IMG/VR virus record: IMGVR_UViG_3300045988_121070 | Length of the DNA stretch: 64,000 nt | Reading direction: 5' to 3' (one strand) | Source of the DNA: a virus | In this document: in pieces, positions 2,311-45,177 of the stretch | Layout: each line of letters begins with the position of its first letter | How positions within the stretch are numbered: position 1 is the first letter of the stretch | Notes under the pieces: model-generated | What the model saw: only the letters and a program-made list of their open reading frames with translations | Databases searched by the model: none | What the model was told of the DNA's origin: nothing | Made by a program: the position numbers and the translations under genes

Positions 2311-2673
2311 TTATTCGACTGGAATTACATTGGTAATGTCGTAGGCTTCACCACCTTTGCCAAAATCAACAGAGACACAACGGTCAGGACCACACCAGAA
2401 AACACCTGTATCGGCGAGAGTACCACGTTGTTTGCCAACCATGACCTTTTGACCTTTGCTTAACTTGCCGAACCATCGCTGTTGGAGAGTTTTACTCCAG
2501 ATGACTTCAAGGCGTTTGCCGCTATGGTCGTAGTGTACTGCCATGCCACCGAAGGTTGGTTCAAGAGCTTCTACCTTTTCGACGATCTGACGTTTAGAGA
2601 GGACAACATCAAAGTCCAGTTTTGCCAGTAGTGCATCTGGCAGTTTTTTACGAATTGCTGTTATAGGTTCCAT
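2311..2673 (-). CDS. Hypothetical protein (120 aa)
   Basis: ORF packed between the methyltransferase gene and a C-module repeat. Confidence 0.55.
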   Translation of the reverse strand: MEPITAIRKKLPDALLAKLDFDVVLSKRQIVEKVEALEPTFGGMAVHYDHSGKRLEVIWSKTLQQRWFGKLSKGQKVMVGKQRGTLADTGVFWCGPDRCVSVDFGKGGEAYDITNVIPVE

Positions 2674-2674
2674 A

Positions 2675-3442
2675 TTAAAATAATGTTTGTTGTGATAATT
2701 CTATTTTGATATTCTTCTCAGCCATTGCGAAATACTCAGGATGAATTTCAAAGCCAATGTAATGGCTTTTCTCCTTGATAGCTGCTATGGCTGTTGTTCC
2801 GCTACCTATGAAAGGGTCGAGAATTACCCCCCCCCGTGGCACGAAAAAATGTATGAGCGTCTGAGGTAAAAGAAGCGGGAATGCTGCCCGATGCTTACCT
2901 TTGTGGTTCTTTCCAATTCTCAACACATTGGATAGTTTACCACGTTCAGCGTTCAATAGAGGAAACTGGCGGCCTTTACAGTCGTGCTTATCGAAAGCGA
3001 TGATAAATTCATACTCACAGTTGAGCACTCCTGAGTGCATGGCCGGTTCAGACGATTTCTTATCCCAGATAAGGATATCACGGATGCGGTCAGCATAGTG
3101 GCCAAAGATTTTCATCAGAGCCACCTTATTACCTGTTATCATCATTATGTTATAGAAGACAGGTCCATTGCTGACACGTAACATTTCGTCGATACACTGA
3201 CATTGCCAGTTGAAATAGTCATCCATTGACATTGCATCATTCACACGGTTGTCGTAACGATTAGCAGGGAGGCCGGTATAACCAAACGTCTCTCCTTTCG
3301 TCCATTTGGTATATTTACCAGAATGGATGCGTAGGCCGAAGTTATAAGGCGGTGAAGTGATAACAGCATTTACGCTGTTATCCTCCATCTGCCTCATTCC
3401 TTCGAGACAATCCATGTTGTATATGGTGTCAATGTTCATCAT
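2675..3442 (-). CDS. DNA methyltransferase, beta class (N6A or N4C)
   Basis: Motif IV (VITSPPYNFG) precedes motif I (GGVILDPFIGSGTTAIAA). The likely start is MMNIDTIYNMDC at 3442; the tracked ORF up to 3619 overlaps the upstream gene. The GG of GGVIL is encoded by a 9-nt homopolymer at 2827-2835, in frame. Confidence 0.9.
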   Translation of the reverse strand: MMNIDTIYNMDCLEGMRQMEDNSVNAVITSPPYNFGLRIHSGKYTKWTKGETFGYTGLPANRYDNRVNDAMSMDDYFNWQCQCIDEMLRVSNGPVFYNIMMITGNKVALMKIFGHYADRIRDILIWDKKSSEPAMHSGVLNCEYEFIIAFDKHDCKGRQFPLLNAERGKLSNVLRIGKNHKGKHRAAFPLLLPQTLIHFFVPRGGVILDPFIGSGTTAIAAIKEKSHYIGFEIHPEYFAMAEKNIKIELSQQTLF

Positions 3443-3443
3443 A

Positions 3444-4271
3444 TTACTTCTGCTCTTCAGGAATTGGTTTGAAGACCAGGGCCGACCATAGCGCAGCGAA
3501 TTGGCGACCAGCGTATTTCGCAAGTTCGCTCGATTTGAAGGCCAGGCGAGCGCCGAAGCACGCGTTCGAGCGCGAGAAACCGAGACTCGAGTCCGCAGCC
3601 GAAAGACCGCAGCGCGCACCGCTAGCCGCGAGACCCCCGACGATCAGCAGCTGTGCCTTATCATCCTCACTCATTTCGTCTATCTCCTTCTGGGTATAGA
3701 GGTAGAAGTAAGGATAGTAGCGATATTCATCCTCAGTGAATTGTGGCACCCATCCTTCATTGAGGGCATAGGTGATGATGCGGAGCTGGATGTAAGCAAG
3801 CAGGTCAGGTGTACGTGGCGAATTAAACCAGAGGTCTATCATCAGTTCGTTAGCCAGTTTGTCGCCAGCCTGAGCACGGCGATTGAGGTCATTGCAAGCA
3901 TCCTCAAAGGTCTTGATGCGTTCTGTGACGGGGCGGTTGTCTGGAGTTTCTGTTTCATCCGCAGGTATGATGCAAGACCAATCCTCTGCCAAAATATCCT
4001 CCCATGAGGGAATGTAGTAGGTGGCAGAAGCCGGTGTTTTACCGTCGTCTGTGAAGGTAATCATAATCACCTGGTCGTGGTAGGATATTTCGCCACTTCC
4101 AACGGTGCTAATCTTTGGTTTGATAGATGCTGGCAGGGATGTCATCTTTGGCACCACATCCTTTGCTATACATTGGGGGATCTGCATGACGATTTCCTGA
4201 TTGTCATGCCACGTAGAACGGGAGGCATGGCCACCCTTTTTCAGACATTCAATAACTGCTGGAAAATTCAT
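3444..4271 (-). CDS. Protein with a DUF2829-like N-terminal domain
   Basis: MNFPAVIECLKKGGHASRSTWHDNQEIVMQIP resembles the DUF2829 pattern F.eAi.alk.Gkk..R.gW. The start is taken at 4271, downstream of an inverted A-module hairpin at 4292-4311. Confidence 0.6.
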   Translation of the reverse strand: MNFPAVIECLKKGGHASRSTWHDNQEIVMQIPQCIAKDVVPKMTSLPASIKPKISTVGSGEISYHDQVIMITFTDDGKTPASATYYIPSWEDILAEDWSCIIPADETETPDNRPVTERIKTFEDACNDLNRRAQAGDKLANELMIDLWFNSPRTPDLLAYIQLRIITYALNEGWVPQFTEDEYRYYPYFYLYTQKEIDEMSEDDKAQLLIVGGLAASGARCGLSAADSSLGFSRSNACFGARLAFKSSELAKYAGRQFAALWSALVFKPIPEEQK

Positions 4272-39228: not shown

Positions 39229-39801
39229 ATGATTATGGAACAGATATATCATCTTTACATCACGCACAAATGCGGCCACAACTGCCCGCTATGTTGCAAC
39301 AGACTCTATGATATAGACAAACTACCTGTAATTACCGTAGAGGATCTGAAACAAGCTCATACGGTATGCCTCACTGGTGGCGACCCGTTCTACCTTCTGA
39401 GAGAGGAATTGATATCAATCGTTGACAGACTTCGCATCCACTATAAGAATATCCAAAAGATATACATCTATACCAGCGGAAAGATGCTGTGGATAGAAGG
39501 TGCATTTTCTCATTGGCACGAGCTGATGCAGACTGTCAGCGGTATCAATATAGCACCGAAATACTATGGCGATTGGGACAGACTCGACTATCTTCTTCAA
39601 CAGCCGAAATGGTTGGAAATGACGGCACAAACAGGCATGTCTAATCGCCTATACATCTTTGATGACCAGTGGGACACATGGAACACCATCAGCAAGGATG
39701 TTACGCTACCGGCAACATGGCAGGTGATAGGGCGCAAATGGGATAAGGAGTTTAAGACTCCAGAGAATGAGCATTTTGTAAGACTACCTATATTATACTG
39801 A
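39229..39801 (+). CDS. Small radical SAM enzyme (190 aa)
   Basis: HKCGHNCPLCCN (CxxxCxxC) near the N-terminus. Confidence 0.7.
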   Translation: MIMEQIYHLYITHKCGHNCPLCCNRLYDIDKLPVITVEDLKQAHTVCLTGGDPFYLLREELISIVDRLRIHYKNIQKIYIYTSGKMLWIEGAFSHWHELMQTVSGINIAPKYYGDWDRLDYLLQQPKWLEMTAQTGMSNRLYIFDDQWDTWNTISKDVTLPATWQVIGRKWDKEFKTPENEHFVRLPILY

Positions 39802-40580: not shown

Positions 40581-40964
40581 ATGAACGGATTTGCTTACTA
40601 TAACCCCAATCCAAAAGGGCTTACAAACGCTTACGACTGTGTAGTACGAGCCTACACTTACTTCTTTGGTGTTACATGGCACAAGGCTTTTTTCGATGCT
40701 ATAAATTGGTGCGCCGAAAGAGGACTGGTAAGATGGAATTTTCCCAGCATCTACACACAATATCTGAAAGACAAAGGATATCAGCGTCACAGAGCGCCCA
40801 GAAAGGGCATAACGGTAGGACAATTCCGTGATGAGTTTGCAGACATAAATAAGACTTATATCATATCAGGACCACATCATCTAACTATTATTGCCAAAAA
40901 GGACATTCTGGACTTAGGAGATTGCTCTGATATGGTGATGTTCGCATATTGGGAAAGACAATAA
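40581..40964 (+). CDS. Hypothetical protein (127 aa), possibly Cys/His peptidase-like
   Basis: NAYDCVVRAY...GPHHLTIIAKKDILDLGD hints at a papain-like Cys...His...Asp arrangement. The evidence is weak. Confidence 0.5.
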   Translation: MNGFAYYNPNPKGLTNAYDCVVRAYTYFFGVTWHKAFFDAINWCAERGLVRWNFPSIYTQYLKDKGYQRHRAPRKGITVGQFRDEFADINKTYIISGPHHLTIIAKKDILDLGDCSDMVMFAYWERQ

Positions 40965-40983: not shown

Positions 40984-41160
40984 ATGAGTAAGACGAAGAT
41001 TTTAGCGCCTGGTGTGGAGGTGGCACAGGACACGGGAGAAGTGTTGCTGATGCGCTGTCCGAAATGCGGGAAAGAGAACTGGGCACCGAATGTGGCTCTG
41101 GGTATCTGTACGTGGTGCGGGTATGACGGGCACGAACTATTGAAGGAGGAAGACGTATGA
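40984..41160 (+). CDS. Zinc-ribbon small protein (58 aa, below the ORF-track cutoff)
   Basis: MSKTKILAPGVEVAQDTGEVLLMRCPKCGKENWAPNVALGICTWCGYDGHELLKEEDV (CPKC...CTWC). ATGA overlap with the next ORF. Confidence 0.5.
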   Translation: MSKTKILAPGVEVAQDTGEVLLMRCPKCGKENWAPNVALGICTWCGYDGHELLKEEDV

Positions 41161-42071: not shown

Positions 42072-42944
42072 ATGGGTATAAATAAATTCAAATGGGATGT
42101 AAACTGTTGTGATGGGATATATAACTCATTCGACGTACACTTTACATCAGCCTGCGACAACCGATGTAGGCATTGCATTGATATGAAGTACCAGGGTAAA
42201 GGTATTATAAAACCAGACCCGAAAGCAATAGCACAAACTATCATCGACCATTCAAACGGTTTCGATGATGTGTTATTCCTCGGAGGTGAACCATGTTTAT
42301 ATCTGGATGAACTTTACGACTGCATCTGTAGAATTAAGGCAGCGACTAATCTAAAATGCTTTGTTACAACATCAGTTCCTAAGACATGCTATACAAATTA
42401 TTCTGTATTTCTACGAATATTAGAAATATTGGACGGCATGAATCTATCAGTACAACACTACCGAGAGGATGTTGCAGACGAAATACGTTGTGTAAAGTCA
42501 ACCTTTGACAGACAAAAATTCTATTCAGAATTACCCATGAAAGGAAAGATGCGCATCAATCTAAACATTGTCAAACCGTATCTATATAAGCGTGAAGATC
42601 TGTTAGCCTGTCTAAAGCACTACGATGACATGGGTTATAGAGAAATAAAACTCTCAGAAATCCAACACGGCACCGAGCACTTCGTATCTTTCGAGAAGAC
42701 ATTAGGCATGAAGATGAAATCACCATTTGCCTACGGCTGTCAACAATGGGTGGATATGCGCCCATACATACCTGGGTACAAAGGCCGTCTGCTACTTAAA
42801 CGATCATGCTTCCTCTGCGAGGAGACCTTAAAAGCCAGTTTTATGGACGGCATGAAGGTTATGCGCAAATATCTGTTACGGCCACAAAAAGGCCATTATG
42901 CAGTAGTATATGAAGATGGCTCACTTGCTAACGGGTGGGTATAA
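42072..42944 (+). CDS. Radical SAM enzyme (290 aa)
   Basis: FTSACDNRCRHCID (CxxxCxxC). Additional Cys residues near the C-terminus (RSCFLCEE). Confidence 0.8.
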   Translation: MGINKFKWDVNCCDGIYNSFDVHFTSACDNRCRHCIDMKYQGKGIIKPDPKAIAQTIIDHSNGFDDVLFLGGEPCLYLDELYDCICRIKAATNLKCFVTTSVPKTCYTNYSVFLRILEILDGMNLSVQHYREDVADEIRCVKSTFDRQKFYSELPMKGKMRINLNIVKPYLYKREDLLACLKHYDDMGYREIKLSEIQHGTEHFVSFEKTLGMKMKSPFAYGCQQWVDMRPYIPGYKGRLLLKRSCFLCEETLKASFMDGMKVMRKYLLRPQKGHYAVVYEDGSLANGWV

Positions 42945-42968
42945 GTTTAACTTTTTAATTTCAAGATT

Positions 42969-43157
42969 ATGTGGACGAGATTGTTAAGAGACCTGATGCT
43001 TCAGGTGACGTTAAAAATGGGACATTGCAGTGATGGCGGCGGTGGCGGATGGGGTCATTGCGGCGGCAGCGAGACACTTTATCGCAAGATAGGCAGCGGC
43101 CATTGTGCCACCTATGAGCCTGTCAATCGAGGCGGACACACGGGACATTGTTATTAA
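42969..43157 (+). CDS. Gly/His/Cys-repeat peptide (62 aa), a candidate radical-SAM substrate
   Basis: MWTRLLRDLMLQVTLKMGHCSDGGGGGWGHCGGSETLYRKIGSGHCATYEPVNRGGHTGHCY. It has four G-H-C triplets, each encoded GGN CAT TGY, and starts 25 nt after the radical-SAM gene. Confidence 0.5.
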   Translation: MWTRLLRDLMLQVTLKMGHCSDGGGGGWGHCGGSETLYRKIGSGHCATYEPVNRGGHTGHCY

Positions 43158-43177
43158 ATTCTTATATCATTATAATT

Positions 43178-43321
43178 ATGGCTTTTTGCAAAAAACGTGG
43201 TGTGGAAATAAGCGGTCCGAACTGCATGGGATGTTACCAATGTAATGAAGAAAAATCAGAAACTCTTAGAAACTTATATGCAAGTTGTATAAGAATAATG
43301 AACGAACCTGATAAACAATGA
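43178..43321 (+). CDS. Cys-rich small peptide (47 aa, below the ORF-track cutoff)
   Basis: MAFCKKRGVEISGPNCMGCYQCNEEKSETLRNLYASCIRIMNEPDKQ. ATGA overlap with the next ORF. Confidence 0.4.
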   Translation: MAFCKKRGVEISGPNCMGCYQCNEEKSETLRNLYASCIRIMNEPDKQ

Positions 43322-44175: not shown

Positions 44176-45177
44176 ATGCTGATAGGACTGGTGGACGTGG
44201 ACGGACACGCCAAGAAAAAGAAATGGGGTGCAACGATATACCCCAACCTCGCACTCGCTAAGATAGCGAGGTACTGGAGAAATAGGGGGGGGCAAATTGA
44301 ATGGGCCACTCCCATGAAGCATTACGACATCATATACATGTCAAAGGTGTTTAACTTTTCGCCTGACGATACCTATATATATAATGCCGACGAGATAGTG
44401 AAAGGCGGGACGGGCTATGACCCTACGAGCCAGTTGCCGGAGGAGATAGACCGTCTGCAGCCGGACTACTCGATATACCCCAACGTGCCGAAAGATACTG
44501 CCTACGGATTTCTGACGAGAGGATGCCCGAACAGGTGTAAGTGGTGTGTGGTGCCCAGAAAAGAGGGTGCCATACGTCCGTATATGGATGTAGATGAGAT
44601 AGCCATTGAGGGCAGGCGAAAGTTGGTGCTGATGGATAACAACATCTTAGCGGCAGGCGACTACTGCATGGAGCAGTTGGAGAAGATCATTGAGAGAGGG
44701 TATAGGGTGGACTTTAACCAGGCTCTCGATGCGCGACTGGTGACTGACGAGGTGGCACAGCTGCTGGCGAGGGTGAAATGGCTTGATAACAACCGCATCC
44801 GCTTTGGGTGTGACACGCACGGACAGATAGCGGAGTGTGAGCGGGCTATGGCGCTCATCAACAAGTATGGCTTCACGGGGCAGTATTTCCTTTATACGAT
44901 GCTGACGGATGACTTCAGGGAGTGTTACGAGCGGATAGTGTATTGGTGGCACAGAACGCAAGAGACGCGGGCCAATCATCATGGGAGGTACGTCTATCCC
45001 CATGCACAGCCCTACCGTGACCCGATGAATCCCAACCACCACATACCACAATGGCAAAAGGACATGGCGGGATGGGTAAATAAGAAGGCGCACTTTGTGG
45101 CGCACTCGTTTGAGGACTTTGAGCCGAGGAAAGGGTTTAGGTGTAAGCAGTACCTGAGAGAGGCAGGGATAATATAG
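44176..45177 (+). CDS. Radical SAM enzyme (333 aa)
   Basis: FLTRGCPNRCKWCVV (CxxxCxxC). G8 at 44285-44292 encodes RGGQ, in frame. Confidence 0.8.
   Translation: MLIGLVDVDGHAKKKKWGATIYPNLALAKIARYWRNRGGQIEWATPMKHYDIIYMSKVFNFSPDDTYIYNADEIVKGGTGYDPTSQLPEEIDRLQPDYSIYPNVPKDTAYGFLTRGCPNRCKWCVVPRKEGAIRPYMDVDEIAIEGRRKLVLMDNNILAAGDYCMEQLEKIIERGYRVDFNQALDARLVTDEVAQLLARVKWLDNNRIRFGCDTHGQIAECERAMALINKYGFTGQYFLYTMLTDDFRECYERIVYWWHRTQETRANHHGRYVYPHAQPYRDPMNPNHHIPQWQKDMAGWVNKKAHFVAHSFEDFEPRKGFRCKQYLREAGII

Follow-up and report, generated by a model that had tools for sequence, protein, structure and literature searches.

Enzymes of the radical S-adenosylmethionine (rSAM) superfamily that work with a genetically encoded Cys peptide are a known kind of system, and the closest described examples are the SPASM/twitch maturases of ribosomally made peptides that are modified after translation (RiPPs), which include CteB with SCIFF, PapB, AlbA, SkfB, and SuiB and are encoded beside a short leader-core peptide. 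PqqE and MftC, which belong with the tiny precursors PqqA (pyrroloquinoline quinone, PQQ) and MftA (mycofactocin), carry SPASM domains and need a partner with a RiPP recognition element (RRE), and the enzymes for methanobactin and the bufferins are not rSAM proteins and give two-site Cu chelators made from Cys. In the His-Xaa-Ser systems, a small rSAM enzyme without SPASM (HxsC) goes with HxsA, a peptide in which short repeats contain His. In MoaA (GTP 3',8-cyclase), three C-terminal Cys ligate an auxiliary cluster in which one iron is open; this iron binds GTP, as the open cluster iron of CteB binds a peptide Cys. To our knowledge, RiPP-type rSAM systems have rarely been reported from phages. 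The subject here is a pair of genes in a 64,000-nucleotide stretch of viral DNA (IMG/VR record IMGVR_UViG_3300045988_121070, called the window), where an rSAM gene is followed by an open reading frame (ORF) for a predicted peptide with four Gly-His-Cys (G-H-C) triplets, termed the GHC peptide. An earlier note, made from the window's letters, had described this arrangement as a RiPP-like pair within a block rich in rSAM genes; the sequence and a Pfam match bear out the enzyme gene and the four-triplet ORF behind it, and carriage by phages was also supported.

Conservation of the enzyme and GHC peptide genes

The enzyme and the GHC ORF almost certainly constitute a functional unit. The related loci collected were 53 viral loci, 10 loci from metagenome-assembled genomes (MAGs), and several metagenome contigs, and in 49 of them the enzyme shares 50% identity or more with that of the window. 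A small same-strand ORF lies directly downstream of the enzyme gene in all 49 of these loci, including two (L028 and L059) in which a frame disruption joins the peptide ORF to the enzyme ORF. As a chance control, the six-frame ORFs of at least 20 residues were collected from the window and 65 non-redundant related loci; exactly 49 of these 19,176 ORFs contain two or more GHC motifs, and every one of them is directly downstream of an rSAM gene on the same strand. The co-occurrence that the earlier note had proposed as a check on its reading is found throughout these 49 loci and in no other ORF of the set.

The gap between the two genes is −4 to +5 nt in most relatives (24 nt in the window), which suggests that the genes are translationally coupled in most loci. 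The pair is kept together in many unrelated phages, and clustering of all ORFs of at least 60 residues from 65 loci revealed no gene conserved alongside the enzyme throughout the close family. The unit is therefore a two-gene cassette of ~1.1 kb and not a block rich in rSAM genes, and its distribution points to a self-contained cassette moving among phages. From the RiPP-like arrangement first proposed, the conserved and apparently coupled enzyme gene and leader-core ORF are retained, and a second Cys-rich ORF that had been counted with them falls outside the unit.

The GHC peptide of the window reads MWTRLLRDLMLQVTLKMGHCSDGGGGGWGHCGGSETLYRKIGSGHCATYEPVNRGGHTGHCY, and its final G-H-C is followed by one Tyr and then TAA. 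Peptides of the close family share the leader consensus M-[YWF]-T-[KR]-x-L-R-K, and the first His-Cys is preceded by 18 residues in 89 of 120 database peptides. The usual core consists of a G-H-C, a spacer of 3–16 residues rich in Gly, Ser, and Asp, a second G-H-C, and a stop codon close by, as in the typical peptide MYTKLLRKIVKMMRTMAGHCDGDGSGHGHCY; exactly two His-Cys dyads are present in 106/120 database peptides, and the last G-H-C is almost always followed by exactly one residue (Tyr in 64/120, Ser in 34/120). The Gly before the dyad is near-invariant (248 of 254 positions), the spacer between the dyads is hypervariable across GHC peptides, and the Gly, His, and Cys codons of the motif differ from locus to locus without a change of residue (GGA/GGT/GGC/GGG, CAT/CAC, and TGT/TGC), so that selection acts on the protein sequence. 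The conserved enzyme-peptide pair, the conserved leader, and the variable core give the cassette the general gene layout of RiPP systems. Several lineages have expanded cores of three or four dyads, and the less common four-dyad form of the window, which looks like two usual two-dyad cores in tandem, also occurs in L010, L014, L058, and P0121-P0125.

Two further loci vary the precursor itself. In L025, one enzyme gene is followed by two tandem precursor genes with differing cores, which end in ...GHCSSTGHCS and ...GHCVPDKPDKPVGHCY. The L006 precursor has a long helical leader like the N-terminal part of the G-G-C-type proteins described below, and suggests that the common 18-residue leader may be a shortened version of a longer ancestral one.

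The best explanation of the pair, with a probability of roughly one half, is a RiPP-like system in which the enzyme modifies Cys(/His) dyads of a tethered peptide. That the peptide is the substrate of the enzyme is given an even chance or slightly better; arguments for it are that precursors are duplicated, that cores are expanded, and that the spacer is hypervariable. Neither the enzyme family nor the peptide is described by any curated model in Pfam, NCBIfam, PHROGs, or PADLOC, and a full-text literature search found no description of the enzyme-peptide family. The peptide ORF has no Pfam match and no name in any database searched, and each of the 127 peptide clusters either lacks a name or is called hypothetical, in agreement with the earlier impression of an unfamiliar substrate type. 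The motif, the minimal enzyme, the carriage by phages and mobile elements, and the alternation of separate and fused forms are what appears to be new. Positions of the cassette and of the other features discussed are collected in Table 1.

Table 1. Positions of the cassette, of its neighbours in the window, and of features in related loci.
Feature	Record	Position	Strand	Length	Remarks
rSAM enzyme gene	Window	42072-42944	+	290 aa	CX3CX2C, Pfam match
Intergenic spacer	Window	42945-42968	+	24 nt	Enzyme stop codon to peptide ATG
GHC peptide ORF	Window	42969-43157	+	62 aa	Predicted peptide; G-H-C triplets at nt 43020-28, 43053-61, 43098-106, 43143-51
Peptide leader	Window	42969-43019	+	aa 1-17	MWTRLLRDLMLQVTLKM; basic, probably amphipathic, of near-fixed length, conserved
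Peptide core plus stop codon	Window	43020-43157	+	aa 18-62	Four G-H-C triplets
rSAM-like protein	Window	39229-39801		190 aa	CX3CX2C (CGHNCPLCC), GGDP; below Pfam cut-off
phrog_3754 protein	Window	40581-40964		127 aa	Function unassigned in PHROGs
Zinc-ribbon ORF	Window	40984-41160		58 aa	CPKCG...CTWCG
Second Cys-rich ORF	Window	43178-43321		47 aa	Five Cys, C-x11-C-x2-C-x2-C...C
rSAM protein	Window	44176-45177		333 aa	CX3CX2C; below Pfam cut-off; phrog_9298 at 5e-98
Tandem precursor genes	L025	6819-6929, 6877-7041
Long-leader precursor	L006	6880-7107		75 aa
Second, unrelated rSAM	L006	7347-8324			CX3CX2C, "RMGEPA"
Homologue of the L006 second rSAM	L054	4316-5290			Upstream of the cassette
G-G-C branch, enzyme	L049	5995-6858
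G-G-C branch, peptide	L049	6859-7155
Lak-A1 enzyme	L071 (Prevotella phage Lak-A1, MK250016.1)	2483-3361
Lak-A1 ORF	L071 (MK250016.1)	3383-3844		153 aa	G-G-C-type tail
Fused-branch member	L072	6001-6933
Fused-branch members	P0292, P0353, P0361, P0362, P0370, P0374, P0376, P0384, P0391-P0445
Tail-less member	L075	6001-6846
Tail-less member	L076	4001-4849
Tail-less member	L078	4001-4849

A minimal rSAM enzyme

The enzyme belongs to the rSAM superfamily by its cluster motif, its SAM-binding motif, and its Pfam score, and all of its top fold matches are rSAM proteins. It matches the Pfam model Radical_SAM (PF04055) with an E-value of 2e-9 and 38 bits against a cut-off of 29.5 bits, Fer4_12 is also matched, and the CX3CX2C motif (C28/C32/C35) and the SAM-binding motif GGEP (G71-G72-E73-P74) are invariant in the alignments. 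In every branch of the family, three extra Cys residues (C13, C223, and C246) are invariant, and C249 is confined to the close family. Only 27 residues stand ahead of the cluster motif, homologues in metagenomes form more than 950 clusters (at 90% identity) of which nearly all are ~284 residues long, and among the homologues listed, 120/120 carry only PF04055 and PF13353. The AlphaFold models of the window enzyme (predicted local distance difference test, pLDDT, 86) and of a relative with a fused tail (P0394; core pLDDT 91) are confident and have MoaA, SuiB, CteB, viperins, SkfB, DesII, EpeE, and PFL-AE as their nearest folds at TM-scores of ~0.5–0.6 and 12–20% identity, with BtrN (like MoaA and SkfB a twitch-type enzyme with one auxiliary cluster) and PFL-AE with bound peptide also among the neighbours, and no close relative was found in the viral structure library BFVD (TM-score ≤0.59, identity ≤20%). 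By fold, the family belongs to the MoaA/viperin/twitch-SPASM region of the rSAM superfamily, with no finer discrimination. Matches to curated families are all far below their cut-offs and span the common rSAM core only; the families matched include prokaryotic viperin, HxsC, NrdG, PFL activase, PqqE, and MoaA.

The SPASM/twitch maturases resemble the cassette in that Cys is the likely target in both, the extra conserved Cys of the enzyme suggest an auxiliary cluster, and several of these maturases are its fold neighbours. Unlike them, the enzyme has no seven-Cys SPASM motif (which holds two auxiliary clusters) and no N-terminal RRE and is only ~285 residues long, the peptide has a new G-H-C (×2) motif with a penultimate Cys, there is no protease or exporter, the carriers are phages and mobile elements, and forms with the tail fused to the enzyme exist. 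Both SPASM and RRE profiles, which the earlier note had wished to see searched, were negative for this enzyme: Pfam and NCBIfam gave no SPASM-domain model, SPASM-type families matched the core only (13–21 bits), and there was no PqqD/RRE match. For the SCIFF family, no NCBIfam model (TIGR03973 included) matched the window peptide or typical peptides at E-values up to 1, and SCIFF needs six Cys in a C-terminal region of 45 residues, whereas the usual GHC peptide has two Cys. HxsC scores 14 bits with the window enzyme and up to 37 bits with related enzymes, where the cut-off is 268; neither HxsB nor HxsD is co-conserved as a partner, and the repeat is G-H-C or G-C-H and not H-x-S. The kinship with ranthipeptides, sactipeptides, SCIFF, and His-Xaa-Ser systems that had been suggested therefore did not hold. 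A further likeness is to PqqA/PqqE, MftA/MftC, methanobactin, and the bufferins, where a tiny precursor keeps only its product residues invariant; the target of MftA is similarly close to the C-terminus, and methanobactin similarly has exactly two modified units per peptide, the dyads being candidate sites here.

A Pfam scan of 136 neighbours in 28 diverse loci found no protease, exporter, or RRE protein; the neighbours are a mixture of accessory and DNA-metabolism genes such as methylases, RecA, RecT, RNase H, Rha, antirepressor, and NUDIX proteins. This bears on the possibility that the phage makes a secreted sactipeptide or ranthipeptide bacteriocin that kills competitors of the host. A Cys-bearing core behind a leader, encoded beside an rSAM enzyme with CteB and SkfB among its fold neighbours, would suit such a product, but the enzyme has neither SPASM domain nor RRE, the 28 loci contain no peptidase, ABC exporter, or immunity gene, the peptide matches neither TIGR03973 nor any other NCBIfam model, and the relatives with fused tails would need a protease to set a product free, so that a bacteriocin is considered very unlikely.

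The scan likewise found no glycyl-radical enzyme in any neighbourhood, which counts against the proposal that the enzyme is an activase which abstracts a hydrogen from the Gly of G-H-C to give a radical peptide or tail, the neighbouring Cys serving as thiyl relay. The JGI label of the homologues ("organic radical activating enzyme"), the near-invariance of that Gly, and weak matches to NrdG and PFL-activase models and to PFL-AE structures are all in line with the proposal. The NrdG and PFL-activase scores are 16–36 bits against cut-offs of 126–232, an RVxG-type motif is absent, and a Gly-rich peptide of 30 residues, disordered in the model, is unlikely to shelter a stable radical. Glycyl-radical activation is consequently regarded as most improbable.

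Viperins and MoaA are the two closest solved relatives of the enzyme, by sequence and by fold, respectively. Among solved structures and in PADLOC, no sequence matches better than viperin and the prokaryotic pVip (E-values of 6e-8 and 4e-9, respectively), through the rSAM core. Their scores are 31–39 bits against a cut-off of 180 bits (31 bits for NF038283), the PADLOC pVip match (34 bits) covers only profile positions 4–176 of 257, and the viperin match stops at about residue 200 and leaves the C-terminal nucleotide-binding part unmatched. Unlike viperins, the genes are found in phages rather than in defence islands, and they come with an obligate Cys/His peptide that has no viperin counterpart. 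MoaA is the best fold match (TM-score ~0.6), and its C-terminal three-Cys set can be likened to that of the enzyme; the identity is 14–18%, the scores with MoaA models fall far short of the cut-offs, the enzyme has one Cys of its set (C13) at the N-terminus, and there is no molybdopterin gene context.

Distant branches and the role of the dyads

The enzyme family extends into branches in which the motif is altered, moved, or reduced. In the G-G-C branch (L043-L054 and L060), enzymes 39–46% identical to that of the window and without C249 are followed by proteins of 93–128 residues whose N-terminal part is helical and whose tail, rich in Gly, Ser, and Cys, contains G-G-C repeats and a Cys at the end; these tails are long, with up to about eight Cys in Gly/Ser repeats, and L050 is an exception with no Cys-rich ORF after the enzyme. 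By labels given to the neighbours by eye, the G-G-C pair lies between PnuC-like and NadR-like ORFs on its upstream side and a gp25-like baseplate gene immediately downstream. The Lak megaphages, whose records are unannotated, are the sole GenBank phage records with a homologue of the enzyme (35–38% identity); for example, the enzyme of Prevotella phage Lak-A1 is followed by an ORF whose product ends in ...YSGGCGNTYGGFSRSGGC.

The fused branch came to light when 1.84 billion representative proteins were searched with a profile, which gave 472 matches, 86 of them below 1e-30. In this branch, which comprises at least 331 clusters, reversed G-C-H dyads are carried on the C-terminus of the enzyme itself, with the last dyad at the extreme end, as in the tails ...SFGCHAKLPVSRGCH and ...DCHSDKFSGGAGCHATGGGCH. 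The number of G-C-H dyads is usually two or three and ranges from two to four, and two or more C-H dyads were counted in 56/112 tails examined. One fused member is in a mobile-element-like region of gut Firmicutes, together with YodL, DUF4314, GNAT, and DnaJ genes. A 346-residue protein (P0041) considered as an enzyme-peptide fusion proved to be an N-terminal over-call. The tail-less clade consists of proteins of 281–282 residues whose gene stands alone on the chromosome, in bacterial surroundings that differ from case to case (a SpoU methylase, PolA-CoaE-MBL, and a HigB/HigA-like pair among the neighbours), and its C-terminus, ...Y[RK]I..TEPCEKVIE, has one conserved Cys without dyads. What the branches appear to have in common is a Cys near a C-terminal end, kept by the enzyme through a leader or linker, with an adjoining His in most of them.

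Under the RiPP-like explanation, the leader would tether the peptide to the enzyme, a function that a disordered linker would have in the fused relatives. C13, C223, and C246 would ligate an auxiliary Fe-S cluster that, like those of MoaA or CteB, leaves one iron open, this iron would bind the thiolate of the peptide Cys, and the 5'-deoxyadenosyl radical would then modify the Cys of the dyad and possibly the adjacent His too. The most likely chemistry would be a Cys-centred cross-link (thioether or Cys-His) or the conversion of Cys into a metal-binding heterocycle; a thioether specifically is doubtful. The order of His and Cys swaps between H-C and C-H, which would point to side-chain chemistry or joint metal binding rather than to a backbone reaction that depends on the preceding residue. 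A product with two His-Cys units per peptide may bind metal or be redox-active, and it would probably act inside the infected cell because no protease or exporter accompanies the cassette. The persistence of the Cys theme in the G-G-C and fused G-C-H branches and the presence of the peptide-modifying rSAM enzymes CteB, SuiB, SkfB, EpeE, and PFL-AE among the fold neighbours favour this explanation.

Several observations weigh on the other side. SPASM and RRE, neither of which the enzyme has, are found in nearly all characterised Cys-cross-linking RiPP maturases, and viperins and MoaA, its closest solved relatives, both act on nucleotides. Dyads fused to the enzyme would allow one product per enzyme molecule, which is unusual for a natural product and more like a domain or ligand; the tail-less chromosomal clade has a single tail Cys and no dyads; and the G-G-C branch is without His, so that His-Cys chemistry cannot be universal. 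In the AlphaFold model of the fused P0394 (paired alignment), the core has a pLDDT of 91 and the tail is disordered (pLDDT <50), and this tail, in a model that contains no clusters, neither supports nor excludes docking.

Some of these observations would be explained if the dyads were a working part of the enzyme, in cis where they are fused and in trans where a leader tethers them, and the substrate were something else, perhaps a nucleotide as for viperin or MoaA. Such a tail could be a ligand of the open iron, a metal or small Fe-S carrier for electrons, or a sacrificial donor of sulfur or hydrogen atoms. The large fused branch, the tail Cys that the chromosomal clade still keeps, the 1:1 stoichiometry that translational coupling implies, and the viperin and MoaA matches all agree with it, as does the lack of a protease or exporter, and two His plus two Cys are a classic four-ligand metal site. 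The precursor duplication in L025, the three- and four-dyad cores, and the hypervariable spacer are typical of substrates and not of cofactor-like tails, however, the viperin, pVip, and MoaA models score far below cut-off and through the common core, and the long G-G-C tails with their many Cys fit a ligand role poorly. An accessory tail is the main rival account, and one to which we attach clearly less weight than to modification of the peptide.

A wider formulation of the RiPP-like explanation, also held only tentatively, is that of a family specific to phages and mobile elements whose enzyme would build a new His/Cys structure on a tethered dyad, either in a G-H-C peptide or in a G-C-H tail; this structure might be, for example, a His-Cys cross-link or a pair of metal-chelating thio-heterocycles. 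If this is true, phages would use a new RiPP or cofactor class inside the cell, possibly for metal capture, for redox rewiring, or for countering host defence. If the dyads are an accessory tail instead, the enzyme would be an rSAM protein of a new kind, one whose Cys/His tail is detachable. The carriers include Bacteroides-type phages, jumbo phages, and Lak megaphages, with the fused branch in mobile elements of Firmicutes, and the retention of the cassette by many unrelated phages implies that it is of use during infection. The enzyme could reveal a minimal rSAM mode of peptide recognition and possibly new Cys/His chemistry, and a cassette of two genes is easily expressed and tested.

Neighbouring genes in the window and in related loci

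The neighbours named in the earlier note are all present as ORFs in the window, and its GNAT assignment is solid. Its view of the surrounding genes as a common system was not upheld: by tblastn, the second Cys-rich ORF, the GNAT, YopX, the 190-aa protein, and the 333-aa rSAM protein were rejected as parts of the system, as they recur in near-identical phages only, and the zinc-ribbon ORF and the supposed peptidase are confined to such phages too. The two additional rSAM enzymes that had been listed, those of 190 and 333 residues, do contain CX3CX2C motifs, but both fall below the Pfam cut-off. The phrog_3754 protein had been read as a possible peptidase, a reading that no profile match supports. 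The 47-aa, five-Cys ORF that had been paired with the GHC peptide does exist, but its conservation is limited to near-identical contigs (96% identity); it might encode a small protein that binds zinc, or might not be a gene at all.

Over the N-terminal half of the GHC-family enzymes, the 190-aa protein is ~24% identical to them; its best match in NCBIfam, a weak one, is HxsC, and it looks like a truncated distant paralogue. The window is only weakly like phages of Bacteroides and Phocaeicola, with ~65% DNA identity over the 333-aa rSAM gene, and nowhere else in the region does the DNA resemble that of cultured phages (here LoVEphage, PV4-TP1, and BI-TP1). This 333-aa protein is also encoded in L005, on the opposite strand and ~4 kb away. 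A link to the anti-Pycsar protein Apyc1 was considered from MBL/Apyc1-like Pfam matches in one phage and one chromosomal neighbour; the two are non-homologous, and the link was set aside as coincidence.

A second rSAM enzyme, unrelated to that of the cassette, is encoded 240 nt downstream of the GHC peptide in L006, a phage-like contig of 418 kb. The 333-aa rSAM protein of the window was compared with this enzyme and with the N-terminal domain of P0293 and showed no similarity to them. A homologue of the L006 enzyme is encoded upstream of the cassette in L054, and residues 1–385 of P0293 are an rSAM domain of the L006 type (25% identity, E-value of 5e-11) fused N-terminally to a GHC-family enzyme. 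Some lineages (L006, L054, and P0293) may have a two-rSAM system.

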